The translations under genes were made by a program, and so were the position numbers. The notes below the pieces were generated by a model. It worked only from the letters and a program-made list of their open reading frames with translations. It did not search any database and was not told the origin of the DNA. This document shows, piece after piece, positions 3,360 to 47,813 of a stretch of DNA of 47,978 bases. The stretch comes from Solirubrobacterales bacterium (GTDB lineage: Bacteria > Actinomycetota > Thermoleophilia > Solirubrobacterales > 70-9). The stretch's first letter is position 1, and each line of letters opens with the position of its first letter. The stretch lies in the NCBI GenBank assembly GCA_035701465.1, contig DASSMU010000238.1, forward strand, positions 1 through 47,978. The letters run 5' to 3'.

Positions 3360-3461
3360 GGCACCTCTTAGAACACGGCTGCGAGCAGGGAGATGCTGTG
3401 GCCCGACGGCTCAAGGAGCACTGCGAAATCGCCGATAGAAATGAGTCTTGGGAGTGACCCG

Positions 3462-6130: not shown

Positions 6131-6214
6131 ATCGGGTTACCGGCAAGAGAGCGCAAGCAAGATGAGGTGCCGCTCTCATCCACGCTTAAGACGCACCCTG
6201 CACCCTGCGGCGCC

Positions 6215-9383: not shown

Positions 9384-10064
9384 ATGCACGTGCTGGTCGT
9401 CGAGGACGAGGTGAAGATGGCGGCGCTGATCCGGCGCGGCCTCACCGAGCAGGGCCTGGCGGTCGACGTCGCCCCGAGCGGCGAGGAGGCCCTCGTGATG
9501 GCCGGCTCCTCCGCCTATGACGCCGTGGTGCTCGACGTGATCCTGCCGGGGATCGACGGCTTCGAGGCCTGCCGGCGGATGCGAGAGGACGGCATCTGGG
9601 CGCCGGTGCTGATGCTGACCGCGCGGGGCGCGGTGGAGGACCGGGTCGCCGGCCTCGACGGTGGCGCCGACGACTACCTGACCAAGCCCTTCTCCTTCGC
9701 CGAGCTGCTGGCTCGGCTGCGGGCCCTGATCCGCCGCGGGGAGAACGAGCGACCTGCCGTCGTCGAAGTCGGAGACCTGCGCCTCGATCCCGCCACCCAC
9801 CAGGTCTGGCGCGGTGAGACCGAGATCACGCTCTCGGCCAAGGAGTTCGCCCTGCTCGAGGCGTTCATGCGCCGCCCCGGCCACGTTCTCACGCGGCTGC
9901 AGCTTCTGGAGCAGGCGTGGGAGTACGACTACGAGCACCGCTCCAACGTGATCGAGGTCTACGTCCGCTACCTGCGCCAGAAGATCGACGCGCCCTTCGG
10001 GACACACTCGATCGAGACCGTGCGCGGGGCCGGATACCGCCTGCGAAAAGACGGCGGATGCTGA
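9384..10064 (+). CDS. OmpR/PhoB-family response regulator
   Basis: MHVLVVEDE...DAVVLDVILPGIDG...LTAR...DDYLTKPF receiver domain plus a winged-helix C-terminus (LSAKEFALLEAFM...GAGYRL). The upstream part of ORF 9159..10064 was trimmed. Confidence 0.9.
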   Translation: MHVLVVEDEVKMAALIRRGLTEQGLAVDVAPSGEEALVMAGSSAYDAVVLDVILPGIDGFEACRRMREDGIWAPVLMLTARGAVEDRVAGLDGGADDYLTKPFSFAELLARLRALIRRGENERPAVVEVGDLRLDPATHQVWRGETEITLSAKEFALLEAFMRRPGHVLTRLQLLEQAWEYDYEHRSNVIEVYVRYLRQKIDAPFGTHSIETVRGAGYRLRKDGGC

Positions 10065-11509: not shown

Positions 11510-12396
11510 GCCTCCTCCGGCGCCAGATCGGCCTCTGCGATCGCCCGCCCCGGCCGCGCATGCTCGCGGCGACGATGCGGAACGCGGGCCTCTTCGGGAG
11601 CGTCCTTGCCGGTGACGCTCAGGTAGGCGACGAAGCCGGCGATCATCGCCGCCAGGACGAAGCTGACCGGACCGGTCCCGATCCCCAGGCCGCCCCGTTC
11701 TGGCGAAACCGCGAGCCAGTCGGCGAAGGAGGCGCCGAGGGGGCGGGTGACGACGTAGGCGAACCAGAAGGCGAGGATCGAGTTCATCCCGTAGCGCCAG
11801 TAGCCGAGCGCCGGCACCGCGATCACCGCGGCGAAGAGCAGGCCGGAGGCGAAGAAGCCAAGGCCGAAGGTGACCGCGGTCAGGTCGCCCGCGGCCGTGC
11901 CCAGGGCGAAGGTGGCGAGGACTGCGGCCCAGTAGAACATCTCCCGGCGCGGGGTGCGGATGCTGTGGATCGAGAGCGTGCCCTCGCTCAGGTACCAGGC
12001 CCTGAAGACGACGGCGAGGACTACCGCGTAGAAGACGGTCGAGGCAATGTAAGGAACGCCGAGACCGACGTGGAGGACGTCGGCGGCCATCGTGCCGAAG
12101 ACGCCGACCATCGCCACCGCCAGCCAGTAGGCCCAGGGTACGTAGCGGTCCTTCGAGAACTGGATGTAGAGAGCTATGACGAAGGCGATGCCGCCGAGCA
12201 CCACCGCTATCTCGGGGACGAGCTTGTGGACCAGGAAGTCCGAGGTCGACTCCCCCATCCCGGTCGTCAGCGCCTTGACGATCCAGAAGTAGGCGGTCAC
12301 CTCAGGGACCTTCGAGAAGCTGCGTCCCAACGCGCGAGAAGACGCCTGGCCTTCTCCAGCGCCTGCTGACGAGGAGGTATCGAGCTGTGGATCCAT
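11506..12396 (-). CDS. DUF347-repeat (COG4705) membrane protein, paralog of 6215..7465 without the USP-like domain
   Basis: KVPEVTAYFWIVKALTTGMGESTSDFL, AYWLAVAMVGVFGTMAADVL, MFYWAAVLATFALGTAAGDL, LAFWFAYVVTRPLGASFADWL. The stop overlaps the kinase stop. Confidence 0.8.
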   Translation of the reverse strand: MDPQLDTSSSAGAGEGQASSRALGRSFSKVPEVTAYFWIVKALTTGMGESTSDFLVHKLVPEIAVVLGGIAFVIALYIQFSKDRYVPWAYWLAVAMVGVFGTMAADVLHVGLGVPYIASTVFYAVVLAVVFRAWYLSEGTLSIHSIRTPRREMFYWAAVLATFALGTAAGDLTAVTFGLGFFASGLLFAAVIAVPALGYWRYGMNSILAFWFAYVVTRPLGASFADWLAVSPERGGLGIGTGPVSFVLAAMIAGFVAYLSVTGKDAPEEARVPHRRREHARPGRAIAEADLAPEEA

Positions 12397-15528: not shown

Positions 15529-17703
15529 TCAGCCTTTGCCGAGCCCGGCGCAACCGGCCGGGTCGAGCTTGCCCTTGACCTTGAAGACGTAGTCGGGCTC
15601 GGGCGTGATGTTGGGCTCTTCGATGATCTGTTCCAGGTTCGGGTCGGTCTTGATCCAGGCGTAGATCGGGTACCAGTATTCCGCCTCGTGGGAGTCCTGA
15701 GTGAACTGGCTGACGATCAGGAAGTCGTATTCGCCGGCGTTGATCCGGCGGCGGAACTGGGCGCAGCTGGTGGCGAGGCGGTAGGCGCCGTCCGGCCCCG
15801 GTACCCCGATGAACTGGACGTAGTTGTCGAGGTTGGCGCCGTAGAAGCCGTACTGGCCGAAGAAGATCTCCCCTGAGCCGGCGATCCCGATCCGCTTGTC
15901 GTGCTGCTTGCGGGCGAAGGCGTAGGCCTGCTTCGGCCCGCCATCCTGGAGGAAGTGGTCCGTTTCCGTGTAGTGGTGGTCGTAGTACTGCACCTCCTGG
16001 GCGCGGCCGAGGACCACGGCCAGCAGCAGGACCGCGCCCGCGGCGCCGGCGACGACGACGCGGCTCGCGTTCCACCGCGTGCGGGCCAGCCCCAGGCCCG
16101 CCGGCGCCCAGACCAGGGCCAGAGTGAGGAAGACGGTGCCGACGATGTAGCCGGGGTACCAGCGCGGCGTCGTCAGCACCGTGATCGCGTAGACGGCGAG
16201 GAGGAAGAACAGCGTCTGCCGGGCGCGGCTGTCGGGCGCCCGCAGCGGCCGCGCGATCGGCAGCAGGACCAACGCCAGGACCAGGCCGGGGATCAGGTAG
16301 CGGGTATTGGTGAAGAAGCCGGTCGGCGAGCCCTCCTGCCCGGCGGCGGTGAGCGGCGTGAAGATGTAGACGACCGCGGTCGCCAGCGCCCCCACGGCGA
16401 TCACCCGCAGGATCTTGTTGCGGGAACGGACCGCAACGTAGACCGCCGCGGCCACGGCGACGATCAAGATCAGCGGCCAGAGCGGCCCGAGCGCGTTGTC
16501 GAGCTGGGGGAAGAACCAGCGGCGGTAGATCGTCGGCTGGGTCAGGTAGTGGGCGACGGCGAAGCGCGGCCGCGGGTCGAGCGGCATCTGGTCGGGACGC
16601 GGCAGGTGCAACGGTCCGAAGCCGATCTGCGGGAGCGGATTGCCGCCCGTCTTGACCGCCGCCCGCACGTACCAGTAGCCGCCAACCAGGAAGGTCGAGA
16701 GGCCGAGCACCCAGGCGGTGGTGAGGCGTCGCCCGCGGCCGCTGAAGACGATCACGCCAAGCCCGATCGCGACGACCGGGATCAAGAAGGTGAGCTTGAC
16801 CGAGGCGGCGAGCCCTGCCGCGATCCCGGCGATCACCAGCGGCCCCTTGTCGAGCAGCGGCGCATCCTGCTCCGGCGCATCCTGGACCGCCCCCGAATCG
16901 GGAGCTCGTCGCTGGTGCGCGTTGATCAGGAAGGCGGCGAAGGCGATCAGGAAGGCGAGCCCCATGATGTCGTTTCGTCCCTCGCCCGGCTGGGTCTCGA
17001 TCATCACCCCCGAGTCGAGCACGATCGCCGCCGCGACCAGCGTCGCCGGGCCGACCTTGTAGGGGCGCCCGACGCACCAGGCGGCGAGCAGCGCGATCGC
17101 CAGCCAGACCAGGTTGATCAGCGGCGAGAGCCAGTCGGTCTTGAAGAGGACGATCGCGGTGCCGTGGATCAGCTCCGAGCTCTGCGGGTAAAACCAGGCG
17201 ACGAGGCGCAGCGGGTCGGTGAAGTGCAGGTGGACGGTCGAGTGTTCCTGGGCGAACCGCGCCGCGAAGGGCATGTGGTACCAGGTCGTGTCGCCGCCGA
17301 ACATCCCCTGGTCGAGGCTGAGCTGGGAGGGGAAGGTCCACTCGGCGACCGTGAAGGAGGCGACCGCGAGGGCGATCAGCAGGGCGAACGTCTGCACCTG
17401 GGGGGCGCTGATCTCCCCGCCGGAGGCGGGCGCCATGTGCCAGCCGAGCAGGGCGGCGAGGAGGCCGATCGCGATGCAGACGACGATCGTCCAGCCGACC
17501 GTGAGGATGCTGAGGCTGCCGAGCAACTCGAGCGAGACGACCAGCAGCGCGACGGCGATCGTGGCGTCGGCGAGCCGCGCCAGCGCGCCGGAGAATTCGG
17601 GCACGATCCAGCGCCGCAGCCAGTAGCCGCCGAGGCCGACCGCGCTGACGATGCCGATCACGGCGAAGCAGCCGCCGAGGTAGGAGCCGAAGGAGGGAGT
17701 CAC
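15529..17703 (-). CDS. Large polytopic membrane protein with a C-terminal soluble domain (possible GT-C-type glycosyltransferase)
   Basis: ORF 15529..17703 has at least 12 hydrophobic segments followed by a hydrophilic tail of about 170 aa. Two longer ORFs overlapping it are R/P/G-rich shadows. The functional guess is weak. Confidence 0.55.
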   Translation of the reverse strand: MTPSFGSYLGGCFAVIGIVSAVGLGGYWLRRWIVPEFSGALARLADATIAVALLVVSLELLGSLSILTVGWTIVVCIAIGLLAALLGWHMAPASGGEISAPQVQTFALLIALAVASFTVAEWTFPSQLSLDQGMFGGDTTWYHMPFAARFAQEHSTVHLHFTDPLRLVAWFYPQSSELIHGTAIVLFKTDWLSPLINLVWLAIALLAAWCVGRPYKVGPATLVAAAIVLDSGVMIETQPGEGRNDIMGLAFLIAFAAFLINAHQRRAPDSGAVQDAPEQDAPLLDKGPLVIAGIAAGLAASVKLTFLIPVVAIGLGVIVFSGRGRRLTTAWVLGLSTFLVGGYWYVRAAVKTGGNPLPQIGFGPLHLPRPDQMPLDPRPRFAVAHYLTQPTIYRRWFFPQLDNALGPLWPLILIVAVAAAVYVAVRSRNKILRVIAVGALATAVVYIFTPLTAAGQEGSPTGFFTNTRYLIPGLVLALVLLPIARPLRAPDSRARQTLFFLLAVYAITVLTTPRWYPGYIVGTVFLTLALVWAPAGLGLARTRWNASRVVVAGAAGAVLLLAVVLGRAQEVQYYDHHYTETDHFLQDGGPKQAYAFARKQHDKRIGIAGSGEIFFGQYGFYGANLDNYVQFIGVPGPDGAYRLATSCAQFRRRINAGEYDFLIVSQFTQDSHEAEYWYPIYAWIKTDPNLEQIIEEPNITPEPDYVFKVKGKLDPAGCAGLGKG

Positions 17704-19400: not shown

Positions 19401-19793
19401 GTGAGCGCGATCCTGCTCGACACCCACGTCGTGCACTGGTGGTCGGCGGAGCCGAAGCGAGTCAGCGCCTCTGCCCGCAAAGTGCTCGAGAGCGCGGATG
19501 AGCTCGTCGTCGCGGCGGTCTCCTGGTACGAGTTGGCATGGCTGGCGAGACACGAGCGGATCGTCGTCAACGTCCCAATCCGGACCTGGCTGCAGGGCCT
19601 CGCCGCGCAGCTTCGGACGATCGGCGTGACCCCGGCCATCGCGGACACGGCCGTCGGCCTGCCATCCTCGTTCCCGGGCGACCCCGCCGACCGCATGATC
19701 TACGCAACCGCGATTGAGCACGGACTCAAACTCGTGACCAAGGATCGGGCGATCCGCGATCACGCGCATCCTCAGTCAGTGGTTGTCTGGTAG
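19401..19793 (+). CDS. vapC: PIN-domain ribonuclease toxin
   Basis: GTG start. ILLDTHVVHWW N-terminus, and the acidic residues D...E...D...D are spaced as in PIN domains. Confidence 0.85.
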   Translation: MSAILLDTHVVHWWSAEPKRVSASARKVLESADELVVAAVSWYELAWLARHERIVVNVPIRTWLQGLAAQLRTIGVTPAIADTAVGLPSSFPGDPADRMIYATAIEHGLKLVTKDRAIRDHAHPQSVVVW

Positions 19794-36531: not shown

Positions 36532-37020
36532 ATGGAGGGGGCCGAGAACACCGGAATCGGGGAGGCGATCACCGAAGAGGGCATCGTCGCCCTGCGCGAG
36601 GAAATCGAGCAGCTCGAAGGCCCGACCCGGACCAAGATGGCGGCGCGGATCAAGGTCGCGCGCGAGGAAGGCGACCTTAAGGAGAACGCCGAGTACCACA
36701 TCGCCAAGGAAGACCAGGCGCACCTCGAGACCAAGATCAAGCGCCTGCGCGAGCGCCTGCGCACCGCCGTCGTGGTCGAGGTCGACGGCAATGCCGACGC
36801 CTTCGCCTTCGGCCGTACCGCCGAGGTGCTGGACGAAGCCAAAGGCGAGGTCAACACCTGGACCCTGGTCGGCTCGACCGAGGCCAACCTCGCCGAGGGC
36901 CGCCTATCCGCCGAGTCCCCAATCGGCCGAGCCCTGCGCGACGCCAAGGTGGGCAAGCCGATCGAGATCGAAACTCCAAAAGGCTCCCGCACCTTCGTAG
37001 TCCAGAAGCTCCTCGGCTGA
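36532..37020 (+). CDS. greA: Transcription elongation factor GreA
   Basis: REEGDLKENAEYHIAKEDQAHLETKIKRL and C-terminal SAESPIGRAL. Confidence 0.9.
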   Translation: MEGAENTGIGEAITEEGIVALREEIEQLEGPTRTKMAARIKVAREEGDLKENAEYHIAKEDQAHLETKIKRLRERLRTAVVVEVDGNADAFAFGRTAEVLDEAKGEVNTWTLVGSTEANLAEGRLSAESPIGRALRDAKVGKPIEIETPKGSRTFVVQKLLG

Positions 37021-37034
37021 GCCGGCCGGCTCAG
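37017..37034. terminator. 18-nt perfect palindrome spanning both convergent stop codons
   Basis: CTGAGCCGGCCGGCTCAG contains the greA TGA and the minus-strand TGA of 37031..37303. Confidence 0.35.
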
Positions 37035-37303
37035 AGAACGATTTCCCGGTCGGGAGACGAGAGGGCCGCACCTGCGGCCGCAATCAGCGCATCCGCGTCC
37101 AGGTCATACTTCCTCGCGGCGTCTCGTAGGGACCTGGCGGTGTCCCCATTGGTACCTATCACGTCGATTCGCACCGGCCTGCCGTCGAGGATGCCGACGA
37201 CCAACCAGTCATCGACCTCGTCATCGCCGTAGTCGACCCCCTCCACCCGATCGATGAGATCGATCTGGATCGTGTCGCCCTTGCTGTCGTAATCGGCTCT
37301 CAT
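37031..37303 (-). CDS. DUF2283-like small protein (putative antitoxin partner)
   Basis: The MRADYDSKGDTIQIDL N-terminus resembles DUF2283 (xYDxExDxLxIxL). The ATG overlaps the upstream TGA (ATGA). Confidence 0.55.
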   Translation of the reverse strand: MRADYDSKGDTIQIDLIDRVEGVDYGDDEVDDWLVVGILDGRPVRIDVIGTNGDTARSLRDAARKYDLDADALIAAAGAALSSPDREIVL

Positions 37304-37512
37304 CTTCGCCTCCGATGAATTGTGACGATCGGCTCGGGGTCGTCAAGCGCGACGACGACTCGCACCCGCTCTCCCCGGATGCGCCCGATGTATGTCCACT
37401 TCCCGTTTCGGCCGAGCTCGATGCGCTCCGGCGCGGCCACGAGCCTTTCGGCATCGGCAATCGTCGCTCCGATCTCCCGCGCCCGGTTCTTCGCGTGTCG
37501 GGTGAAGCGCAC
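37300..37512 (-). CDS. DUF4258-like small protein (putative toxin partner)
   Basis: The MRFTRHAKNRAREIG N-terminus resembles DUF4258 (xFTxHAxxRxxERGI). Confidence 0.5.
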   Translation of the reverse strand: MRFTRHAKNRAREIGATIADAERLVAAPERIELGRNGKWTYIGRIRGERVRVVVALDDPEPIVTIHRRRR

Positions 37513-37649
37513 ACGTGTCTAAGCCCCGGGCGCGCGAATCTCTCCCCTGAGAATCTCACGTCGGGAGCGGCTGATCGAGGCTTGACTCACGGCCCGGGCG
37601 GGTGTAAACCGAGACGAGGCCGCAACCCGAATCCGATTGGAGAGTCGAT

Positions 37650-37874
37650 ATGAGCAGAGTCATGGCCGACTGTCGCCGCTTCGAGAGCGAAAGCAACTGC
37701 ACCCTGACGATCATCGGCGAGGAGGACGAGGTGGTCAACGCCGCCGCGGAGCACGCTGCTTCCGTCCACGGGCATGAGGACACACCGGAGCTGCGCGAGC
37801 AACTCCGAGGCATGCTCGAGCCCGAGACCGCCTACGCCCCCGGCGAGCGCCAGGCCGAAGCCTTCCCAGGCTGA
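37650..37874 (+). CDS. DUF1059-like small protein
   Basis: CRRFESESNCTLTIIGEEDEVVNAAAEHAASVHGHEDT matches my memory of DUF1059. It is followed by an imperfect hairpin at 37888-37929. Confidence 0.6.
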   Translation: MSRVMADCRRFESESNCTLTIIGEEDEVVNAAAEHAASVHGHEDTPELREQLRGMLEPETAYAPGERQAEAFPG

Positions 37875-37965
37875 AAGCCTCACCTTCGTTGAAGGGTTTT
37901 CCGGCCTATAGCGCCGAAAATCCTTCAACGAGCGCTTGTCGGGTTGTAATGCTACGCTGTCGCAC

Positions 37966-38208
37966 ATGGAGATCGGCGTACGTGATCTGCGCAACCGCAC
38001 GGCCAGCGTCATCGACGCGGTCAAGGCCGGTGAGCGAGTTGTGCTGACGGTCAACGGTGACCCACTGGCGGACATCGTCCCCCACGGCCAGCGCACCCGC
38101 TGGCTCGGGGGCGCCCAACTACGCGAGCAACTCCGCGACCGTGCTGCCGATCCGGCACTGCGACAAGAGCTCGACGACCTCGCCGGCCAGACCCTCGACG
38201 AGCTTTGA
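37966..38208 (+). CDS. vapB: Phd/YefM-type antitoxin
   Basis: MEIGVRDLRNRTASVIDAVKAGERVVLTVNGDPLADIVP. The stop overlaps the PIN gene start. Confidence 0.75.
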   Translation: MEIGVRDLRNRTASVIDAVKAGERVVLTVNGDPLADIVPHGQRTRWLGGAQLREQLRDRAADPALRQELDDLAGQTLDEL

Positions 38209-38612
38209 CCGAGCAAACCGCCGGCCTGCTCGACACCTCGGTTTTCATCGCCCGAGAGACCGGTCGGCCCCTCGGCGAATTGCCAGATCGGGTCGCCGTC
38301 TCGGTAGTCACCATCGGCGAGCTTCAACTCGGCGTCCTGAACGCGGCCGACGACGCCACCCGCGCACGTCGCGCCGACACTCTCGCCCTGGCCAGGTCAG
38401 CCGATCCGATCCCGATCAGCGAGGCGGTGATGACCAGCTGGGCCCGCCTGGTCGCAGACTGCAAGACAGCCGGCATCCACCGCGCCATCAAGCTCACCGA
38501 CACCCTTATCGCTGCCACTGCCGTAGAGCATGGCCTCCCAGTCATTACTCAAGACGAAGACTTCGCCACGATTGCCAGTGCACATACGGCGCTCGCGGCG
38601 CTAAGAGTCTAG
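38205..38612 (+). CDS. vapC: PIN-domain ribonuclease toxin
   Basis: The TTG start overlaps the antitoxin TGA. GLLDTSVFIARE N-terminus and C-terminal VITQDEDF. Confidence 0.85.
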   Translation: MTEQTAGLLDTSVFIARETGRPLGELPDRVAVSVVTIGELQLGVLNAADDATRARRADTLALARSADPIPISEAVMTSWARLVADCKTAGIHRAIKLTDTLIAATAVEHGLPVITQDEDFATIASAHTALAALRV

Positions 38613-38662
38613 ATGGGCTCCGAAAACGACACTCGGATCCAAAAAACGATTGCGTCTTCGTC

Positions 38663-39700
38663 CTAAATATCGTTTTGTAGTTTAAAACCAAGCGTTGTTG
38701 CGAGCTCAGAGTCAAAGAGCAACTCTGGAAACTGTTTTGTAAGAACTTCCTGATTCTCTACCCAGATCAAGCAAATACAGACAACGGTATGGGAGAGTTG
38801 TTGCGTGGTGGTACCGATTGCGCCTGCATGTTTTTTGAGCAGCCGTTGAACCTCTCGCCCCTTCAAAGCCTTCTCGAGCTGACCGCGGGTTCGAATACCG
38901 ACCATGCCGAGGGCGTCTCGCAGAAGCTTCTCAATATGACTCGCCGTACCTCCAATAGGTGAAACGGTTCCACGAAAAGCCGCACCTTCTGGCAGCAAGG
39001 ATTCCAGGCAACCGACGAGCCGGGCCGCATCAAAGCTGACATCGTGGTCCTTGTCCGCCTCATATGTAGATCGATAGTGATCGATCAGGTTCTGCCCACT
39101 TTCCCTGATCCCCAAGAAGGCATAGTCAAGGGTCTCGAGACTGCCCGCCACCGCTGCCAACCGCCGACCCAGCTCGGGCGGGAAATCCACACCCGACTTA
39201 TACTGAACCTCATGCTCGATAGTTGCCCAGGCATCCTGCAGAAGACTCCTAATCTGAATTTCGAACCACTGCGACCCTAGGTGCTTTCTCACCGCAGCCT
39301 CATGCTCGGGTAGGTGGACAACCAAGTGCACAGACCGATAACCGAAAACGTCAGCGCCAAGCAAATCCAGCCGGTCGTAGGACTCGTCGTCGTCCACAGT
39401 CAGAAGTGGACGCAGATGCTCGGCCGCACTCTCTACTCGGTCTGGATAGTTGGTTACCACCCGGACCCCAATTAGATCCTTGATTTCAACGGCCGGATCT
39501 GTGTACTCCTTCTGCCTCAGCTTGTCGAGCAGAGAGTACGGATCCTTGGCACGCGCCGTGACCGCCTGGATGCCCGCACCAGTCCCCTCAAGAGCAAGCG
39601 ATACGACCGCGCGAGCTTCAGCTGCCGCGCCCTCGTAGGAGGAAAACTGCGCCTGATAATCCTCAAAGAACTGAAGAGTCGTCTGTGGTAGGAGCGACAC
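38663..39700 (-). CDS. RelA/SpoT-domain nucleotide pyrophosphokinase (small-alarmone-synthetase-like) with an unassigned C-terminal region of about 170 aa
   Basis: Synthetase motifs ARAKDPYSLLDKL, IKDLIGVRVV, FGYRSVHLVV and EIQIRSLLQDAWATIEHEVQYK. No HD hydrolase, TGS or ACT region. GTG start 10 nt after the upstream stop. Counted lines of the islet (both within the adjacent DUF262 gene) gave about 48-57% G+C. Confidence 0.8.
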   Translation of the reverse strand: MSLLPQTTLQFFEDYQAQFSSYEGAAAEARAVVSLALEGTGAGIQAVTARAKDPYSLLDKLRQKEYTDPAVEIKDLIGVRVVTNYPDRVESAAEHLRPLLTVDDDESYDRLDLLGADVFGYRSVHLVVHLPEHEAAVRKHLGSQWFEIQIRSLLQDAWATIEHEVQYKSGVDFPPELGRRLAAVAGSLETLDYAFLGIRESGQNLIDHYRSTYEADKDHDVSFDAARLVGCLESLLPEGAAFRGTVSPIGGTASHIEKLLRDALGMVGIRTRGQLEKALKGREVQRLLKKHAGAIGTTTQQLSHTVVCICLIWVENQEVLTKQFPELLFDSELATTLGFKLQNDI

Positions 39701-39710
39701 CTTATGCGCA

Positions 39711-40718
39711 TTAATCGGAATCGACCACGTGGACGAGTGTGTTGATTCGCGTCAGGCGTGGCCGTATGTTGTCAGTTTGCCTACTCGCCGCCAGTAGATA
39801 GCGACTCGCCATCCGGGGCGGACGCTTTCGGTTAAGCAGTCGTTCGAATTCCTGAAGTTTCTTCCCAGCAACGTCCCAATCAACTGAAAGCACACCTGTA
39901 GAAGATGCCAGACGGTCCAACGCACCGATCAGCGCATAGAGGTCGACTGGTTTGCGAAAACGACTTTCACTAAAGTCGGGGAGAGCTTCCTGAATCCAGT
40001 TCAGATACCTCTTCAAACGCTGTTCCGCTTTGCGCCCGCCTGGAAACCTCAGCTGATAGAGACCGTAGTACAAATCGAGGGCGGCCTTCTTGTCTTGAGG
40101 TCCCTCAATTAGAAGAATCGCTAGCTCTCCGGAGAACTCTACCGCGCGCATTCGTTTAAGCTGGGTAGGGGTAAAGATCCGGGCCTCCTGCCATATGTCC
40201 CACCGCCCCAGACGCTCGACGAAGTCGTAGAACGCGCCTTCCTCCCGGGCATGGCGCAGCTCCTGTGGTGAGAGGCGTACTACGTATTTATTCATCCGAA
40301 CGAAAAGGTCCCGTACATCACTGTCCGAATATCCAGACAGCTCCTCGACTACGAAGTCATAACTCAATATTCGGCTACGGAGTCGTTCGGGGAGCTGCGA
40401 GAATTTCTGCCCTTTCAGGGAACTATTGGTGGTTTGAGTTAGTCCAAACCGATTGTCGATAAATTCGAACACGGCGGTCAAGCGTTGCTGCCCGTCGATG
40501 ACCTTGTACGAGGGCCGTCCGGTCTGCGCAGACGTGTACCGCTGGAGAAAGAGTTGGGGTATAGGCCTATTCTCAACGATTGTGTCGAGCAAGTACGCCT
40601 TTGCCGCACGGGGCCAAACGCTATTGCGCTGAAACTCCGCTGCTAGCTCGAGTTGGCCATCGTCATAAAGCTGTCGCAGGAGGGCGACATCCTTGGTGGT
40701 CGTACGCCGATCAGGCAT
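39711..40718 (-). CDS. DUF262 (ParB/Srx-fold, GmrSD N-terminal-like) protein without a DUF1524/HNH nuclease half
   Basis: FQRNSVW and VIDGQQRLTAVFEF motifs. It is 335 aa, with no HNH-like motif visible in the C-terminal half. Confidence 0.8.
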   Translation of the reverse strand: MPDRRTTTKDVALLRQLYDDGQLELAAEFQRNSVWPRAAKAYLLDTIVENRPIPQLFLQRYTSAQTGRPSYKVIDGQQRLTAVFEFIDNRFGLTQTTNSSLKGQKFSQLPERLRSRILSYDFVVEELSGYSDSDVRDLFVRMNKYVVRLSPQELRHAREEGAFYDFVERLGRWDIWQEARIFTPTQLKRMRAVEFSGELAILLIEGPQDKKAALDLYYGLYQLRFPGGRKAEQRLKRYLNWIQEALPDFSESRFRKPVDLYALIGALDRLASSTGVLSVDWDVAGKKLQEFERLLNRKRPPRMASRYLLAASRQTDNIRPRLTRINTLVHVVDSD

Positions 40719-40767: not shown

Positions 40768-41778
40768 CTACGACCCAGGAGTCGGGGCGATCTCGGCGGG
40801 CTCGCCGCCTGGGGCCCAGTGAGCCTCGGGCGAGGGCGGAGTGTCGCGTAGGTACCACTCGGCGTCGAGGGCGCCCATGCAGCCGGTGCCGGCGGCGGTG
40901 ACCGCCTGGCGGTAGGTGTGGTCGACGACGTCGCCGACGGCGAAGACGCCGGCCAGGTTGGTCTTGGTCGAGCCGGGCTGGGTGAGGATGTAGCCCTCGG
41001 CGTCGGTGTCGACCTGGCCCTCTACGACCTCCGAGCGGGGGATGTGGCCGATCGCGACGAAGGCGCCGTCGGTGTCGAAGTCCTCGGTCTCGTTCGTCTC
41101 GACGTTGCGCAGGCGCACGTGGTCGAGCCGGCCCTTGTCGCTGGCGACGAACTCCTCGGCGACGTAGGGGGTCTTGAACTCGATGTTGCCCTGCTCGCGC
41201 GCCCGCTCCTGCATGATCTTGGAGGCGCGGAACTCGGCGCGGCGGTTGACCACGGTCAGCTCGCTGGCGTACTTGGAGATGAAGATCGAGTCCTCCATCG
41301 CCGAGTCGCCGCCGCCGATCACGATCACCTTCTGGTCTTTGAAGAAGGCGCCGTCGCAGACGCCGCAGGTCGAGACGCCGCAGCCGCTCAGCTCGATCTC
41401 GCCGGGGATGCCGAGTCGGCGCGGCTCCGCCCCCATCGCCAGGATCACGGTCTTGGCCAGGTGCTCCTCGTCGCCGAGGTAGACCTTCTGCACGCCGCCG
41501 TCGGAGAGCTCAACCCGGTCGACGTCGTCGGTGACGAAGCGCGTGCCGAAGCGCTCTGCCTGGGCCCGGAACTGGGTCATCATCTCCGGTCCCATGATCC
41601 CCTCGGGGTAGCCGGGGTAGTTCTCGACGTCGGTGGTGTTCTGCAGCTGCCCGCCCCACTGGAAGCCCTCGAAGACGAGCGGCTCGAGGTTGGCGCGCGC
41701 GGTGTAGAGCGCGGCGGTGTAGCCGGCGGGGCCGCCGCCGACGATGATCGTGTTCTCGACTTTCCTGGCCTCTGTCAT
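40768..41778 (-). CDS. trxB: Thioredoxin-disulfide reductase
   Basis: IVGGGPAGYTAALY, redox CGVCDG, GGGDSAMEDS and FAVGDV. The ATG overlaps the upstream TGA (ATGA). Confidence 0.9.
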   Translation of the reverse strand: MTEARKVENTIIVGGGPAGYTAALYTARANLEPLVFEGFQWGGQLQNTTDVENYPGYPEGIMGPEMMTQFRAQAERFGTRFVTDDVDRVELSDGGVQKVYLGDEEHLAKTVILAMGAEPRRLGIPGEIELSGCGVSTCGVCDGAFFKDQKVIVIGGGDSAMEDSIFISKYASELTVVNRRAEFRASKIMQERAREQGNIEFKTPYVAEEFVASDKGRLDHVRLRNVETNETEDFDTDGAFVAIGHIPRSEVVEGQVDTDAEGYILTQPGSTKTNLAGVFAVGDVVDHTYRQAVTAAGTGCMGALDAEWYLRDTPPSPEAHWAPGGEPAEIAPTPGS

Positions 41779-42911
41779 GTCCGTCCTGAGTCTAGTGGCG
41801 TTGCCAATACTTCACTTTGTATAGTAGCGCCGCGGTCAATCGGCAATCCCTCCGTTTCCCACGTCTGGACCCTGGTGCGGAGCTGGAAGAAAGCCGCGAC
41901 TCCGAAGGGGATCGGCATCCAGAAGGCGATCAGGCGGTAGATCAGGATCGCCGGGAAGACCGTGTCCTCGGGGATGCCGAAGAGGACGAAGGCGCCGATC
42001 ATCCCCGCGTCAACCGCCCCGACCCCGGCCGGGGCGAAGGGGATCAGGTTGGCGACCATGCCGAGGAAAAAACCCTGGACGACCACGGCTAGGGGGACGT
42101 GGACGCCGAGGGCGTGAAAGCAGGCCCAGAGGATGCCGATATTCGCCGCCCAGAAGCCGGCGGCGCCGAGGACCGCGAGCCCACCCTCCCGGGGGTGCGT
42201 GAAGAGGCTGATCGCGAAGCGAAACCCCTCGGCGAAGACCGCGGGGACTTTGGCGATGTTCCTGGCGATCGCCTGGCCACGCTCGCCGTGGACGAAGCGC
42301 GCGACCTTCGGGCCGAGGTCAGGCGGGATCAGCGCAAACAGCAGCCCGAGAACCAGCAGCACGCCGGCAATACCGGCCGGCACGATCGTCAACTCCACCG
42401 ATGCCTTGCCGTGCAGCACGCCGGTCCGCAACAGGACACCGAAGAGGATCAGCGCCAGCGGGTAGAAGGCGTAGTGCAGGGTGAGGAAGGCGACCATCCG
42501 GCGGGCGACGTCGTGGCGGCGCATGCCGGCCTTGCGCAGGGCCCAGAAGGTGAGCACGATGCCGCCGGCGCCTCCGGCCGAGAAGAGCAGCGTCGCCGCC
42601 AGGCCGGCCATGTTGATCTCGTAGGTCTCGACCCAGCTGAGGCGCAGCGCATTGCCGCCGACGACGGCCTTGAAGAGGGCGATGTAGGTGGCGAAGGCAA
42701 CGAGGTTGAAGCCCACCGCGACCGCGATCCAGATCGGGTCGGCTTCGTCGAGCTTGCCCAGCGCGTTACCCAGCCCGACCAGCTTCGGGAAGAGGAAGTA
42801 GATCCCGACCAACAGGGCAACGACGAGGGCGCCCGTCTGGATCAGCCGCCGGCGAGTGAAGATCGGCAGCTCGGCGGCTTCGCCGCCTTTCGCCGGATCC
42901 TCGGGAGACAC
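41775..42911 (-). CDS. Polytopic membrane protein, lysyl-phosphatidylglycerol-synthase TM-region-like (UPF0104)
   Basis: About 8 TM segments. The N-terminal pattern RRRLIQTGALVVALLVGIYFLFPKL resembles PF03706-type proteins. Assignment is from memory only. Confidence 0.55.
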   Translation of the reverse strand: MSPEDPAKGGEAAELPIFTRRRLIQTGALVVALLVGIYFLFPKLVGLGNALGKLDEADPIWIAVAVGFNLVAFATYIALFKAVVGGNALRLSWVETYEINMAGLAATLLFSAGGAGGIVLTFWALRKAGMRRHDVARRMVAFLTLHYAFYPLALILFGVLLRTGVLHGKASVELTIVPAGIAGVLLVLGLLFALIPPDLGPKVARFVHGERGQAIARNIAKVPAVFAEGFRFAISLFTHPREGGLAVLGAAGFWAANIGILWACFHALGVHVPLAVVVQGFFLGMVANLIPFAPAGVGAVDAGMIGAFVLFGIPEDTVFPAILIYRLIAFWMPIPFGVAAFFQLRTRVQTWETEGLPIDRGATIQSEVLATPLDSGRT

Positions 42912-42921
42912 TCCAGGGAAA

Positions 42922-43977
42922 CTACCCGCCGGCGAGGCGCTCCAAGCGGCGCAAGCCCCGATTTACGCGCAAAACCGCCGGCTCGGCCAGGGGCTCGCCC
43001 TGCCGCACGGCGGCGACGAGACCTGCCCCGGCGACCAGGTCGGTGACGTAGTGCTCGCCCAGGTAGACCAGGGCGAAGCCGAGCGTCAGCGCGTAGCTCC
43101 AACCTAGAGCGCCCTCGACCCGCCCCGCTTCGGAGAGCGAGATCGCCGCCATGGTTGAGGTGGCGAAGTGCAGCGAGGGCATTGCCGCCCAGGGGTTGCC
43201 ACCCAGCGCCCCGTACATCGCCGGCCAGGCCGAGCGCCAGGTCTCCTCGCCGACGCCGACCATGATCCGCCGCACCTCCTCCTCGGTCAGCCCCTGCTCC
43301 GACGCCCACCACGGCGGCGCGGTCGGCACGGCGAAGTAACCGGCGCAGCCAATATCGAAGACCGCGGCGAGTTGGCGGGCGGCGCGCGGGAAGCGCTCCG
43401 GGTGGCGCAGCAGGATCCAGATCAAGGCGAGGTAGGGCTCGAAAAACCAGAGCCAGTGGACCCAGGTGAGGAAGCGGTCGACCGTGACGACGCGGGGCAG
43501 GCGCGCGAGTGCCCGCTGGAGGCGGGCGTTGGGCAGGCGGCCGAGGCCGATCGCGCGGTCGGCGACGATCGGGTAGCGCGTGCGCAGGCGCCGCTGCAGG
43601 CGCTCCGGGTCGTCATAAGGAAGCTCGTGAACCATCGTGAATGCCCACATCTGCATCGCGTAGAGGGCGACGTCGCGTTTACGCGAGCGCGGGAAGAGCA
43701 CGGCGACCGCGAGCGGCCCCGCCGCGCAGGCGACGACGGTCACCGGTGCCGGCACCCGCAGGCGGCGGCGCAGCAGGGGAACGGCCACCGCGGCGGCGAC
43801 TGCGCCCGCCGCTCCGGCCCGTACCGCCAGGCGAAGCGCCGGAGATGGCCGCGAGCGCTTCCTCATCAGGTCGGCGAGTATAGGTCGGCGGTCGGGACAC
43901 GAGCCCGGCGGCGCGCCGCCTGAATGACTGCCTTCGTGATTAGAATGGCCGCGCTTTGGCGCCCAAGGACTCATCAC
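42922..43977 (-). CDS. PAP2-superfamily membrane protein
   Basis: MPSLHFATS and YLGEHYVTDLVAG resemble PAP2 motifs C2/C3. The likely start is the ATG at 43866 (MRKRSRPSPA...) rather than 43977. Confidence 0.55.
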   Translation of the reverse strand: MMSPWAPKRGHSNHEGSHSGGAPPGSCPDRRPILADLMRKRSRPSPALRLAVRAGAAGAVAAAVAVPLLRRRLRVPAPVTVVACAAGPLAVAVLFPRSRKRDVALYAMQMWAFTMVHELPYDDPERLQRRLRTRYPIVADRAIGLGRLPNARLQRALARLPRVVTVDRFLTWVHWLWFFEPYLALIWILLRHPERFPRAARQLAAVFDIGCAGYFAVPTAPPWWASEQGLTEEEVRRIMVGVGEETWRSAWPAMYGALGGNPWAAMPSLHFATSTMAAISLSEAGRVEGALGWSYALTLGFALVYLGEHYVTDLVAGAGLVAAVRQGEPLAEPAVLRVNRGLRRLERLAGG

Positions 43978-44116: not shown

Positions 44117-44818
44117 GTGATGAGTCCCCATTCTCCTGGCACCGACCAGATCGACACGCTGCTTTGGATCGGCTTCGTCGCCGCGACGATCGTCATCGTC
44201 GCGATCAACGGCGCCCTGATCTACGCCGTGCGCCGCTACCGCGGCGGCCGCGGGTCCGAGCCACGCCAGGTTCGCGGCGGGCGCCGCACTCAGTTCCGGG
44301 CCGCCGCCGGGCTCACCGTCTTCGCCGCGGCGATCCTCGTCGTCAGCCTCGTCTATACCGGCAAGGCGCGCGAGACGCCCGCCACTGGCCCCGCCGGCCT
44401 CGCCTCGGCCCGCTCCCAGCCGCTGAAGATCGAAACGACCGGCCAGCAGTGGCTGTGGCGCTACGAATATCCCAACGAAGCCTTCTCCTACTACAAGCTC
44501 GTCGTCCCGGTCGACACCACGGTCGAACTCGACCTGGTCTCCACCGACGTGATCCACACCTGGGACGTGCCGCAACTCGCCGGCAAGCGCGACGCCGTTC
44601 CCGGCAAGACCAACCACGTCGTCTTCCGCGCCGATGAAGTCGGCGTCTACCGCGGACAGTCGGCGACTTTCTCGGGCCAGGCATACGGCGCGATGCGGAC
44701 CGAGGTCGACGTGGTCTCCCCTCAGGAATACGAAGAATTCGTCAAACGCCAGAAGGCTGACATCCAGGCCGCCCAGGACCGCGTCGTGGGCCTGATCGAA
44801 AACGGAGAAGTGCCATGA
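44117..44818 (+). CDS. Heme-copper oxidase subunit II-like protein lacking CuA cysteines
   Basis: QQWLWRYEYP and STDVIHTWDVPQLAGKRDAVPG follow the COX2 layout, but the CuA loop reads GQSATFSGQAYGAM. Confidence 0.75.
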   Translation: MMSPHSPGTDQIDTLLWIGFVAATIVIVAINGALIYAVRRYRGGRGSEPRQVRGGRRTQFRAAAGLTVFAAAILVVSLVYTGKARETPATGPAGLASARSQPLKIETTGQQWLWRYEYPNEAFSYYKLVVPVDTTVELDLVSTDVIHTWDVPQLAGKRDAVPGKTNHVVFRADEVGVYRGQSATFSGQAYGAMRTEVDVVSPQEYEEFVKRQKADIQAAQDRVVGLIENGEVP

Positions 44819-46491
44819 GCGCTGCGCCCGAGGTAGTCGTCGACGGCTTCCCCCGCCGCCGGCCGCGCTGGATCGAGATCGCCACCAGCGCCGACCACAA
44901 GGACGTCGGCCGGGTGATGATCGTCGGCGCGCTCGGCTTTCTCTTCATCGCGGTGGTCGAGTTGCTGCTGATGCGCCTGCAACTGGCGGTGCCGGAAAAC
45001 TCGCTGCTCACCCCGGTCACCTTCAACCGCATGCTCTCACTCTACGGAGCGACGGCGATCTTCCTCTTTGCGATCCCGCTGGTGCTCGGCCTCTTCTACT
45101 ACCTGGCACCGCTGCAGGTGGGCGCGCAGGGCACGGCGCTGCCGCGGCTCGGCCAGATCGGCCTCTGGCTCTACATCGCCGGGGCGACCGTGCTCTACGC
45201 CGGCTTCCTCTTCACCCCGTCGGAGGCCGGCGTCAACCCCCTGGCCCCCCTCTCCGGGCTCGCCTTTCTGCCCAACAACGGCGTCGACGCCTGGGCGGCC
45301 TCCAGCGGCCTGGCCACCCTTGGCTTCGTCCTCGTCGCGATCAACCTCGTCGCCACGCTGCGACGCATGCGCGCTCCCGGGATGGCCTGGCGCCGGGTTC
45401 CCGTCTTCGCCTGGGCAGCGGCGATCTGCTCTTGGCTGATGCTGGTGATCGGCCCGGTGATGCTGGCGGCGATCTCGATGCTGCTGATCGACCGCAACTT
45501 CGACGGCATCTTCTTCGCCGACGGCTCCGGCGGCGCGCCGCTGCTCTGGGAGCACCTGAGCTGGATCTTCTTCACCGGCACCTACATGCTGATCCTGATC
45601 GCCGCCCTCGGCGCGATCGCCGAGATCGTCCCGGTCTTCTCGCGCAAGCCGCTCTTCAACCGCGGCGCCGTGACCGGCTCCATGGTCGCGATCGCCGTGA
45701 TCGGCACCCTCGCCTGGATGCAGAACATGCTGACCTCGCCGATCGGAATCGGCTGGATGTACTTCGCGATGACGATGTCGCTGGCGCTGATCGTCCCCTT
45801 CGGCCTCGTCATCTTCAACCTGATCGCGACGATGATCGGCGGCGCCCTGCGGATGCGCGCGCCGCTGCTCTTCTCCCTCGGCGCGATCTCGGCGATCTCG
45901 ATCGGCCTCGGCTCCGAGATCTCTCACTCGATGGTCGCGGTCGCCTGGCGCCTGCACAACACCACCGACGCCACCGCGGCGACCCACTTCGCCTTGATCG
46001 GAGGCAGCGTCTTCGGCGGCTTCGCCGCCCTTTACTACTGGTTCCCGAAGCTGACCGGCCGAACCATGGGCGAGACGCTGGCGCGCTTCTCCTTCTGGAC
46101 GATGGCGATCGGCATCCTGGTCGCCTTCGTACCGCTCTTCCTCGCCGGCACCGACCACGGCCAGGTCGTCGACGCCTACAAGTTCTTCGCCGGCACCGGC
46201 GTCAGCGCCGAGAACCTGATCTCGACGATCGGCGCCTTCGTCCTCGCGATCGGGATCCTGCTGACCCTGGTCAACGCGATCGCCAGCCGGACCAACGGGG
46301 CGCGGGCCGGGCACGACCAGTGGGGCGGCGACTCGCTCGAGTGGTTCGCGCTCTCGCCGCCCGAGCCGCACAACTTCGACCTGCCGCCAGACGTGCGCAG
46401 CGACCGGCCGATGCGCGACATCCGCGAGGCGATCGCCAACCGCACCCGCCGCGATGAAGAGGCGGCCCGCGAAACACAGCCGGTAGCCTGA
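44815..46491 (+). CDS. Heme-copper oxidase subunit I-like protein with most cofactor and proton-channel residues substituted
   Basis: Conserved blocks MRAPGM, PVFSRKP, YWFPKLTGR, GDSLEW and PPEPHNF identify COX1. Ligand positions are altered (details in findings). Confidence 0.8.
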   Translation: MSAAPEVVVDGFPRRRPRWIEIATSADHKDVGRVMIVGALGFLFIAVVELLLMRLQLAVPENSLLTPVTFNRMLSLYGATAIFLFAIPLVLGLFYYLAPLQVGAQGTALPRLGQIGLWLYIAGATVLYAGFLFTPSEAGVNPLAPLSGLAFLPNNGVDAWAASSGLATLGFVLVAINLVATLRRMRAPGMAWRRVPVFAWAAAICSWLMLVIGPVMLAAISMLLIDRNFDGIFFADGSGGAPLLWEHLSWIFFTGTYMLILIAALGAIAEIVPVFSRKPLFNRGAVTGSMVAIAVIGTLAWMQNMLTSPIGIGWMYFAMTMSLALIVPFGLVIFNLIATMIGGALRMRAPLLFSLGAISAISIGLGSEISHSMVAVAWRLHNTTDATAATHFALIGGSVFGGFAALYYWFPKLTGRTMGETLARFSFWTMAIGILVAFVPLFLAGTDHGQVVDAYKFFAGTGVSAENLISTIGAFVLAIGILLTLVNAIASRTNGARAGHDQWGGDSLEWFALSPPEPHNFDLPPDVRSDRPMRDIREAIANRTRRDEEAARETQPVA

Positions 46492-46496
46492 CGCCC

Positions 46497-47396
46497 GTGA
46501 GCGGCGCCGAAACCGCTGTAGTCGCACAGCGCACCCCCGCCTTCGTCGCGGTCCTCCGCGACTACGTCACCCTGACCAAGCCGAAGGTGCAGTCGCTGCT
46601 GCTGCTGACCACGATCACGACGATGTACGTGGCCGGCGACCCCTCGGTCGTACTCGTCTTCCTCGTCTGCCTCGGCGGAGCGCTCTCGGCGGGCGGCGCC
46701 GGGGCGATCAACCACGCGATCGACCGCGACATCGACCGGATCATGGCCCGCACCGCCGACCGGCCCGTGGCCAGCGGCCGGGTCTCCCCCCGGGCCGCCG
46801 TCGCCTTCGGCGCCCTGCTCGGCTGCACGTCCTTCACCCTGCTGGCGCTCGCGGTCAACCCTCTGGCCGCGGCGCTCTCGATCTCCGGCCTGTTCGGCTA
46901 CGTCTTCGTCTACACGCTCTGGCTCAAGCGGACGACGCCCCAGAACATCGTGATCGGCGGCGCCGCCGGCGCCGTGCCGCCGCTGGTCGCCTGGGCGGCG
47001 GTGACGGGCGGAGTCAGCGGCACGGCCCTCTTCCTCTTCGCGATCGTCTTCTTCTGGACGCCGCCGCACTTCTGGGCGCTGTCGCTGCTGATGGAGGACG
47101 AGTACGCGAGGGCCGAAATCCCGATGCTCCCGGTGGTGAGAGGGGCCGCGGAGACGAGACGCCAGATCCTCCTCTACACGATCCTGCTCTACGCGGTGAC
47201 GCAGTTGCCCTTCTGCGCCGGCGGCTTCGGGGTCGAGTACCTGATCGCCTCGATGACACTCGGCGCCGGCTTCATCTACTGCGCCGTGCGCCTGCTGCGA
47301 AGCGCCGACCGCCGCTGGGCGCTGCGCACCTACCTCTTCTCGCTCGCCTACCTGGCGCTGCTCTTCGTCTCGATGCCGCTCGACCGGTTGTTCTAG
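46497..47396 (+). CDS. ctaB: Protoheme IX farnesyltransferase (heme O synthase)
   Basis: INHAIDRDIDRIMARTADRPVASG, YTLWLKRTTPQNIVIGG and FFWTPPHFWAL. Confidence 0.9.
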   Translation: MSGAETAVVAQRTPAFVAVLRDYVTLTKPKVQSLLLLTTITTMYVAGDPSVVLVFLVCLGGALSAGGAGAINHAIDRDIDRIMARTADRPVASGRVSPRAAVAFGALLGCTSFTLLALAVNPLAAALSISGLFGYVFVYTLWLKRTTPQNIVIGGAAGAVPPLVAWAAVTGGVSGTALFLFAIVFFWTPPHFWALSLLMEDEYARAEIPMLPVVRGAAETRRQILLYTILLYAVTQLPFCAGGFGVEYLIASMTLGAGFIYCAVRLLRSADRRWALRTYLFSLAYLALLFVSMPLDRLF

Positions 47397-47436
47397 TAGA
47401 AATCCGGGCGTGGATCGCGAGGCCGCAAGAGCGAAC

Positions 47437-47523
47437 ATGGCCGCCGGGCTGACCGCCGGCGGCATCGCCGCGGCCGTCTTCGCGCTCTGCTTCGTGGCGG
47501 CGATGCTCTACATCGCCTCGTGA
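47437..47523 (+). CDS. Possible 28-aa hydrophobic peptide
   Basis: Not in the ORF track. Reads MAAGLTAGGIAAAVFALCFVAAMLYIAS. Its TGA overlaps the GTG of the next ORF. Confidence 0.3.
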   Translation: MAAGLTAGGIAAAVFALCFVAAMLYIAS

Positions 47524-47813
47524 GCGCGGAACACCGCCACATCCCCGAGCCGGGAGAGCTCGTCTACCTACCGCGCTCCTCCTGGGCACCCGTGGTCTTC
47601 GGCTTCGCCCTGGCCCTGACCGTCTGCGGCATCTTCGCCGAGGGATTCATGGTCCGCGGCTGGATCTACTCGATCATCGGCGGCGTAGTAGCCCTCTTCG
47701 CCATGCGCTCAATGATCAAGGACGCGGTTCGCAGCTACTACAAGCTCCCGCGCAAGCAGAACGTCCGCGGAGCTGTGCTGCCGGTCGAACAGATCTCTCC
47801 GCCGCAGCCCTGA
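47520..47813 (+). CDS. Small 2-TM membrane protein downstream of ctaB
   Basis: ORF 47520..47813. TM segments WAPVVFGFALALTVCGIF and WIYSIIGGVVALFAM. No family recognised. Confidence 0.5.
   Translation: MSAEHRHIPEPGELVYLPRSSWAPVVFGFALALTVCGIFAEGFMVRGWIYSIIGGVVALFAMRSMIKDAVRSYYKLPRKQNVRGAVLPVEQISPPQP

Follow-up and report, generated by a model that had tools for sequence, protein, structure and literature searches.

Heme-copper oxidases are defined by six histidines. The gNOR family has been described as the first in this superfamily to replace even one active-site histidine, a feature otherwise completely conserved, and cupredoxin subunits II that lack the CuA ligands have precedents in the quinol oxidases and in gNOR (Murali et al. 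2024, PMC11214002). A far more extensive departure is found in the 47,978-nucleotide stretch analyzed here (the window), contig DASSMU010000238.1 of assembly GCA_035701465.1 from a Solirubrobacterales bacterium. Its forward strand carries two adjacent open reading frames (ORFs), a subunit II-like ORF called psII (44117..44818) and a subunit I-like ORF called psI (44815..46491), in which the ligands of the redox centers and the residues of the proton channels have been replaced almost throughout. As judged from comparison with its relatives, the pair is very probably a catalytically dead, cofactor-free descendant of subunits II and I of an A1-type aa3 oxidase that has been maintained across a deep clade of uncultured soil Solirubrobacterales.

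Both proteins are readily assigned by family. The 233-residue psII has two N-terminal transmembrane helices and a cupredoxin domain and matches the Pfam COX2 family (E=1.5e-18, 67 bits vs 22). The 558-residue psI has 12 transmembrane helices and matches COX1 (PF00115) with E=5.8e-89 and 299 bits vs a gathering score of 34.8, covering 436 of 436 profile positions. The stop codon of psII overlaps the start of psI in an ATGA at 44815-44818, and the next gene on the same strand, ctaB (46497..47396), begins 5 nt past the psI stop. The proportion of G and C at third codon positions (GC3) is 0.86 in psII, 0.95 in psI, and 0.96 in ctaB in a genome of ~68% GC, the pattern of genuine genes. At the level of specific subfamilies psI falls below every NCBIfam subunit I cut-off, scoring 388 vs 670.75 bits with TIGR02891, 340 vs 880 with NF050116, 352 vs 1015 with QoxB, and 314 vs 1020 with CyoB; psII is borderline at the CoxB cut-off (TIGR02866, 147.8 vs 147.7 bits). 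No NCBIfam model captures the psI family, and the database names of its relatives are generic, either 'cytochrome c oxidase subunit I' or 'cbb3-type ...'.

The ligand columns of psI were located by phmmer against the PDB, where mycobacterial CtaD (8hcr_F) aligns end to end with E=1e-84, by BLASTP against the canonical cox1 of a related genome, and by MAFFT. Five of the six histidine ligands are replaced, and His391 alone is retained. The heme a histidine of helix II is Tyr77, and the canonical methionine four residues past it is also lost. At the entrance of the D channel, aspartate is replaced by Gly106 and asparagine by Gly113. In helix VI, the ungapped HMMER alignment places Thr254 at the CuB histidine, Thr256 at the gating glutamate, and Met258 at the cross-linking tyrosine. 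The CuB His-His pair of helix VII is Gln303-Asn304, the K-channel lysine is Val332, and in helix X the heme a3 histidine is Ala389, with the second heme a histidine kept as His391. All three methods concur on every histidine column of psI, which excludes misalignment as the cause of the missing ligands. The register of helix VI is uncertain by one residue, the gapped MAFFT alignment setting Tyr257 beneath the cross-linking tyrosine with a threonine at its histidine partner; this does not rescue the copper site because the CuB histidine is lost in either register.

The losses extend beyond the metal ligands themselves. The arginine pair that holds the heme propionates (GMPRR) reads GQ(V)VD, with the first arginine replaced by valine in 101 and the second by aspartate in 113 of 120 relatives, and the aspartate of the magnesium site is asparagine, as it mostly is among the relatives. 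Two invariant glycines of transmembrane helix 9 that pack against heme a3 have become Leu365 and Glu368. Over the whole protein only three histidines, H28, H247, and H500, are invariant or nearly so; H28 and H247 are conserved in canonical enzymes too, where they are not ligands, and H500 lies in the C-terminal tail.

Subunit II has fared likewise. Aligned to subunit II of the Thermus caa3 oxidase (2yev_B, E=2e-24, residues 16-217), psII carries Ser182 and Ser186 at the two CuA cysteines, Thr184 at the glutamate, and Tyr190 at the second histidine, keeping the first histidine (H147) and the methionine (M193). Across 79 psII orthologues the first cysteine column is serine or alanine, the second is serine in 78, and the second histidine is tyrosine in 78. 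It is thus well supported that the pair is unable to bind heme a3, CuB, CuA, or magnesium and has neither a D nor a K proton channel, and psI almost certainly cannot bind heme a either.

These results bear out most of the initial annotation of the locus, which had been drawn from the sequence without database searches. That annotation described a full-length subunit I/II pair, an intact 558-codon ORF coupled to subunit II, and an apparently normal adjoining ctaB; both ORFs exist as it stated, the overlap is present, and ctaB passes the equivalog cut-offs. Its substitutions in helices II, VI, VII, and X and in the D and K channels are all reproduced by phmmer and BLASTP, and a recount upholds its register for helix X, in which the heme a3 histidine becomes alanine and one histidine is kept. 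A rigorous alignment with annotated ligand columns did not restore His and Cys ligands at the canonical positions. The CuA claim holds in that both cysteines are serine and the histidine is tyrosine, but the leading 'H' of its CuA motif is not a ligand column. Its conclusion that this is not a working oxidase agrees with every ligand and channel column tested.

The altered state is shared by many species. At least 120 distinct protein clusters are ≥85% identical to psI, all from Solirubrobacterales metagenome-assembled genomes (MAGs), and Y77, G113, T254, Q303, N304, and H391 are invariant in 120/120 of these close relatives. When each GTDB species was represented by a single genome, 139 genomes proved to have a relative, and 80 loci with 74-94% identity were retrieved (designated by L-numbers), including 15 complete chromosomes of 2.45-2.99 Mb; with the window these make 81 loci. 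Genes psII, psI, and ctaB are adjacent in all 81, with psI and ctaB usually separated by 4-16 nt. Uninterrupted ORFs were found for psI in 80/81, for psII in 79/79, and for ctaB in 81/81. The sole interrupted psI copy (L073) has a TGA near position 10300 within a short divergent stretch (APSASSTT*), more suggestive of a frameshift with compensation or of an error in long-read assembly than of real decay.

Selection on the amino acid sequence was gauged from the ratio of nonsynonymous to synonymous substitution rates (dN/dS) by the Nei-Gojobori method, for the window against two close loci (L001 and L002) and as medians over all pairs. Given that extreme GC3 bias compresses dS, so that absolute ratios come out too high and reliance can be placed only on differences between genes, the values are 0.18 and 0.16 for psI (median 0.32), 0.14 and 0.19 for psII (median 0.34), 0.13 and 0.11 for ctaB (median 0.20), and 0.11 and 0.08 for an LPG-synthase-like gene of the window (median 0.29), with medians of 0.13, 0.20, and 0.29 for canonical cox1, ctaA, and a cytochrome c gene that lie outside the window. 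Over 741 matched genome pairs, dN was 0.133 for psI, 0.045 for cox1, and 0.12 for ctaA.

A wider clade was recovered through an exhaustive search of 50%-identity clusters and a further homology search that started from a protein 44% identical to psI (P0124). This revealed a wide ligand-less radiation, again in MAGs of Solirubrobacterales and Actinomycetota. Of 120 relatives of the seed protein, 119 lack the ligand histidines at the majority of the six positions or at every one, and most members have none. The replacements in this divergent clade have a pattern of their own: alanine or serine at the helix II histidine; threonine, alanine, or serine at the first CuB histidine, glutamine at the second (115/120), and asparagine or serine at the third; aspartate at the heme a3 histidine (92/120); and leucine (80/120) or histidine (16/120) at the remaining heme a histidine. 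The D-channel aspartate is glycine in 110/120 and the K-channel lysine is leucine, isoleucine, or valine; the D-channel asparagine column of the wider clade holds N, H, or G, and the gating glutamate column A or T.

The genomic setting is shared as well. Two distant loci (L081 and L082, ~43-52% identity) have the same island with the same gene order, running from LPG_synthase_TM and PAP2 through the COX2-like, COX1-like, and UbiA genes and the small ORFs to the CBS and cytochrome c genes and on to COX3, an unknown gene, COX1, and COX2. Between the core clade and these distant branches psI is 44-52% identical, compared with 55-59% for ctaB, 55% for cox2, 45-52% for cytochrome c, and 57% for PAP2; canonical cox1 and cox3 are 81% and 78% identical. 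The deep identity of psI is therefore similar to that of ctaB, cox2, cytochrome c, and PAP2, as for an ordinary constrained protein and not a neutral remnant. Given purifying selection across so deep a clade, the pair is a pseudoenzyme rather than a pseudogene.

The initial annotation had offered two alternatives, a scaffold or channel kept under selection and a very recent, unusually clean loss of function. Selection is borne out by the intact psI in 80/81 loci, the replacements invariant in 120/120 close relatives, and the dN/dS of 0.16-0.18 in close pairs, and the orthologues carry the same substitutions, not canonical ligands. A very recent loss has to be rejected, since the ligand-less state and the operon are common to relatives only 43-52% identical and the loss is older than a deep radiation within Solirubrobacterales.

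An AlphaFold2 model of psI built from the 81-sequence alignment has 12 transmembrane helices, a predicted local distance difference test (pLDDT) score of 87, and a predicted template modeling (pTM) score of 0.89. Foldseek matches it to actinobacterial CtaD of bcc-aa3 supercomplexes with a TM-score of 0.91. Conservation in psI is divided between old and new positions. Those that are ≥90% conserved and common to canonical enzymes number 81 and lie mostly in loops and helix ends, including the blocks MRAPGM, DR...FF...GG.P..H, FSRKP, YWFPK.TGR, and LEW...PP..HNF; a further 89 conserved positions are specific to the clade. The residues of the clade in the former heme a3/CuB pocket are T254 (81%), G255, Y257 (89%, canonical valine), Q303 (98%), N304 (84%), L365 (94%) and E368 (93%), both canonical glycines, T384, T390, and aspartate or alanine at 389. 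The region of the former arginine pair has D453 (95%) and Q450. The transmembrane helices hold as many strongly polar residues as before (42 vs 43).

Tyr77 and His391 occur together, with 14 of the 15 His-bearing sequences also having the tyrosine (Fisher p=7e-14, with no correction for phylogeny). Such pairing fits a Tyr77-His391 contact that would stand in for the His-Fe-His link from helix II to helix X. The pocket residues as a set fit back-filling of the vacated cavity and would equally allow a new polar binding site.

The genes that follow psI also point to oxidase ancestry. The product of ctaB belongs to the UbiA family (Pfam E=4.6e-64), lies above the NCBIfam heme o synthase equivalog cut-offs (NF003349, 352 vs 246 bits; TIGR01473, 333 vs 210), and has the NxxxDxxxD and PHFWAL...DY..A.IPMLP motifs, so that it appears to be a normal heme O synthase. 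Given their 5-nt spacing, psI and ctaB are predicted to form one transcription unit; a promoter and terminator scan of the operon found nothing exceeding shuffled expectation. Downstream of ctaB is a 37-residue, single-helix mini-ORF with a GTG start (47410..47523, forward strand; MDREAARANMAAGLTAGGIAAAVFALCFVAAMLYIAS). Too short to figure in the ORF list, it is near-identical in 75/79 loci and has no family match; distant L081 has a predicted 37-residue gene in the corresponding position. Its stop overlaps, in a GTGA, the start of sm97 (47520..47813, forward strand), a 97-residue protein with two transmembrane helices that is present in 79/81 loci and is a possible oxidase accessory subunit. 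The protein has a faint Pfam match to Cyt_c_ox_IV (E=0.03), and in a profile search against the PDB, nine of nine sub-threshold matches were to oxidase subunit IV (E=0.069) or the N terminus of COX3 (E=1.4). These matches do no more than hint that sm97 is related to the first two transmembrane helices of COX3 or to CtaF (subunit IV) in its C-terminal half. Because of this faint accessory-subunit similarity, the unit looks like a former complete cta operon, with subunits II and I, heme O synthase, and small subunits, of which the catalytic pair alone lost its chemistry.

The window ends at 47978, and the loci of the relatives show what lies beyond it. A CBS protein, a di-heme cytochrome c (two CxxCH), and ctaA for heme A synthase are followed on the other strand by an unknown 216-residue protein, a five-helix cox3, an unknown 291-residue protein, a 634-residue cox1, and cox2. 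This canonical A2-type cluster is ~6 kb from psI. Its cox1 is a complete A2-type enzyme with STHAV, DMAFPRLN, WFYSHPAVY, WAHHMF, GIKIF, and AHIHF, and its cox2 carries the full CuA set. With an intact A2 cluster and ctaA beside psI, these organisms have a working oxidase and a heme A pathway. The initial annotation had pointed to a search for a canonical oxidase elsewhere in the genome, and in the relatives it is found in this cluster. A third subunit I copy was not seen in 1.66 Mb of retrieved loci, and the remainder of the window, 1-44 kb, yielded no further oxidase or qcr genes. Within the A2 operon (L003, 15579-20457, reverse strand, with equivalents in most loci), the 291- and 216-residue proteins are conserved and without a Pfam match, and the 634-residue cox1 has an N-terminal extension of ~100 residues.

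On the other side of the pair, a protein with an LPG_synthase_TM domain and a PAP2_3 phosphatase (41775-43977, reverse strand) are divergent from psII over a 140-bp gap. Their adjacency to psII is kept in nearly all relatives, including L081 and L082, and the two may be functionally linked to the pseudo-oxidase.

Elsewhere in the window, a low-GC patch at 37000-40718 (0.58 vs ~0.68 elsewhere) ends with a gene for a GmrSD_N (DUF262-type) restriction endonuclease at 39711-40718 on the reverse strand, adjoined by a 345-residue ORF at 38663-39700 on the same strand. The patch is probably a horizontally acquired defense islet, with no tRNA adjacent. A ZIP-like transporter (7538-8386) and a HAMP/HisKA/HATPase sensor kinase (9917-11509) lie between two membrane proteins with DUF347 repeats (6167-7465, forward; 11506-12396, reverse). 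At 19401-19793 the forward strand encodes a VapC-like toxin with a PIN domain. ORFs at 15529-17703 (reverse, 724 residues, GC3 0.95) and 3393-4907 (forward, 504 residues, GC3 0.85) have a strong coding signature and no Pfam match at E≤0.001.

Why a dead oxidase pair should be retained can be answered only tentatively. One possibility, far from assured, is that it serves as a membrane scaffold, or a partner in assembly, without redox function. In this account a single operon would yield psI and psII as a I/II heterodimer, in stoichiometric amounts with heme O synthase and a pair of small membrane proteins of the oxidase type. Space once occupied by cofactors would be back-filled by the changes Gly->Leu365, Gly->Glu368, and Val->Tyr257 and by the Tyr77-His391 pair, with a polar network of E368, Q303, N304, and T254 completing the filling. 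Not itself an enzyme, the complex would then stabilize or organize CtaB/CtaA together with the small subunits or else dock to the functioning oxidase. Dead oxidase descent combined with a non-redox scaffold or assembly role is the best explanation overall, one to be favored without being held as probable. Several points weigh against it. The linkage to ctaB may be mere inheritance from an ancestral working cta operon, and because the whole island, lipid genes included, is syntenic across the clade, neighborhood is a weak argument for function. The dN of psI is ~3 times that of canonical cox1. A pure scaffold has no obvious need for buried Glu, Gln, and Asn conserved at 93-98%, or for Asp389, a pattern that a binding site would explain no less well.

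Such a site is the basis of the main rival explanation, in which the pocket of the binuclear center was rebuilt to hold a non-heme cation or a small polar ligand and the pair acts in transport, sensing, or even catalysis. The site would be formed by E368, Q303, N304 or Ser, T254, Y257, and T390, together with D389 in most members or Y77/H391 in the lineage of the window, and with D453 and Q450 towards the periplasm. These residues are specific to the clade, with a conservation of 81-98%, and occupy columns that are invariantly histidine or glycine in canonical enzymes. Most members have two buried carboxylates (E368 and D389) with no basic partner gained in the same helices, and the Arg->Asp change at 453 is a charge reversal conserved at 95%. 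Set against this, Gly, Ala, Leu, Val, or Ile stands in place of the D- and K-channel residues through which the site would communicate with the cytoplasm, D389 is alanine in the lineage of the window, so that the putative site is not uniform, and E368 is lysine in a few members; buried polar networks can also be purely structural. On balance a rebuilt site of this kind is rather unlikely, if well worth keeping in view. It is conceivable, and only a little short of a tentative proposal, that the pair represents the first known functional heme- and copper-less heme-copper oxidase family, with a polar or acidic site for a cation or small ligand used by abundant soil Solirubrobacterales in transport, sensing, or control of assembly.

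His/Tyr ligation is typical of heme-transfer proteins, and a residual single-heme protein, with Tyr77 and His391 in the lineage of the window ligating a heme at the old low-spin site, could act as a heme O/A carrier, chaperone, or sensor alongside the heme O synthase of its operon. His391 is the kept canonical heme a ligand and Tyr77 occupies the other axial column; none of the 120 close relatives departs from either residue, the two co-occur in the clade at large, and the operon is shared with ctaB. This reading is nevertheless improbable. The propionate arginine pair has become Val-Asp with its charge reversed, the methionine four residues after the helix II histidine is lost, and ~100/120 of the clade have neither Tyr77 nor His391 (Ala/Ser and Leu instead) and still keep the operon and the constraint, so heme binding is not the conserved function of the family. 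Decay or recent loss, with the ORFs intact by chance or needed in cis for the expression of ctaB, would fit the ~3-fold faster change of psI than of canonical cox1 and the internal stop in one of 81 copies. It is very hard to reconcile with 80/81 psI, 79/79 psII, and 81/81 ctaB intact despite heavily diverged synonymous sites, with dN/dS well below 1 and conservation of the substituted residues themselves, with a state common to lineages only 43% identical, and with a psI GC3 of 0.95, typical of expressed genes here; a purely cis-acting role, moreover, would not constrain 790 codons at the amino acid level. Least credible of all is a working oxidase or NO reductase whose unconventional or migrated ligands were missed by alignment. 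Ligand migration does have a precedent in the C-family oxidases, where the cross-linking tyrosine is on a different helix (Murali et al. 2024, PMC11214002). In the present case, three alignment methods agree, most clade members have no histidine at the six ligand columns, the only near-invariant histidines are H28, H247, and H500, two of them (H28/H247) non-ligands in canonical enzymes too, and the arginine pair, the magnesium site, and both CuA cysteines are gone.

The pair is a pseudoenzyme offshoot of the A-family oxidases for which no prior description was found. The full-text literature searched contained no description of ligand-less homologues of heme-copper oxidases, and absence there is no proof of novelty. 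The ligand-less clade spans hundreds of species, with at least 139 GTDB species genomes in the close group and a deeper radiation beyond it, and the whole subunit I/II architecture has been kept there under selection after the loss of every redox center. As a practical matter, counts of heme-copper oxidase genes in MAGs of soil Actinomycetota will overestimate the number of terminal oxidases. The family also offers a natural 'apo' oxidase that should show how a 12-helix bundle can be stabilized without hemes, and a candidate for a new non-redox function on a much-studied membrane-protein fold.

The closest working relatives of psI are found in an A1-type CtaD family (P0373) that includes proteins of Baekduia soli (P0431), Paraconexibacter (P0426), and Solirubrobacteraceae, with 39-42% identity. 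Identity to the neighboring A2 cox1 is only 30-33%, which rules out a recent duplication of that gene as the source. A neighbor-joining (distance) tree groups all ligand-less sequences in one monophyletic clade with a long stem, where long-branch effects are possible. The proximity to this CtaD family and the lineage-typical motifs shared with it suggest that the pair descends from a Solirubrobacterales-type aa3 oxidase, as a paralogue or a displaced orthologue. Like the CtaD of Baekduia and Paraconexibacter, psI has PLQ.GAR..A.PRL..LSYWLYLAG, NG.DAW, and TLEWF..SPPPPHNFD...EP.R.IRE; the fold is the same, and ctaC and ctaD of Baekduia share the 4-bp gene overlap. In contrast, the Baekduia and Paraconexibacter CtaD/CtaC proteins keep every ligand (HPEVY, WAHHMF, GVK, AHFHF, GMPRR, and the CuA set H/C/E/C/H/M), and the Baekduia genes lie in an unrelated neighborhood without ctaB. 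Orthology in the same chromosomal slot is unsupported given this difference in context.

Cofactor loss in the superfamily may have occurred more than once, as other partly degenerate lineages exist. Five subunit I lineages outside the clade (P0128, P0149, P0160, P0181, and P0210) have lost some or many of the ligand histidines, apparently independently, with ligand-column patterns such as HGSHALLRL.. and HRATLANEL.. among them.

Comparison with described systems helps to place the pair. The neighboring A2 oxidase (cox2-cox1-u291-cox3) belongs to the same superfamily and the same respiratory island, but its cox1 has all the ligands and evolves three times more slowly than psI. As a cupredoxin subunit without CuA ligands, psII resembles CyoA/QoxA, to which it aligns, and subunit II of gNOR. 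In those enzymes, however, subunit I is fully active and quinol oxidation stands in for the lost CuA, whereas the partner of psII lacks redox centers altogether, and psII differs from CyoA/QoxA in scoring higher against the cytochrome c oxidase subunit CoxB. Descent from a quinol oxidase, as the CuA-less psII and a gene order like cyoABCDE might suggest, is not favored on the basis of that score. For a scaffold, the model is provided by the 'core' proteins of the bc1 complex, catalytically dead homologues of the mitochondrial processing peptidase that are kept as structural components. Finally, psI is like gNOR, eNOR, sNOR, nNOR, and NOD in being a member of the heme-copper oxidase superfamily with an altered active site and no cross-linked tyrosine. 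It differs from gNOR and the other divergent families in the extent of the change, with five or six of the six histidine ligands replaced across the psI clade and the heme-binding determinants lost as well.

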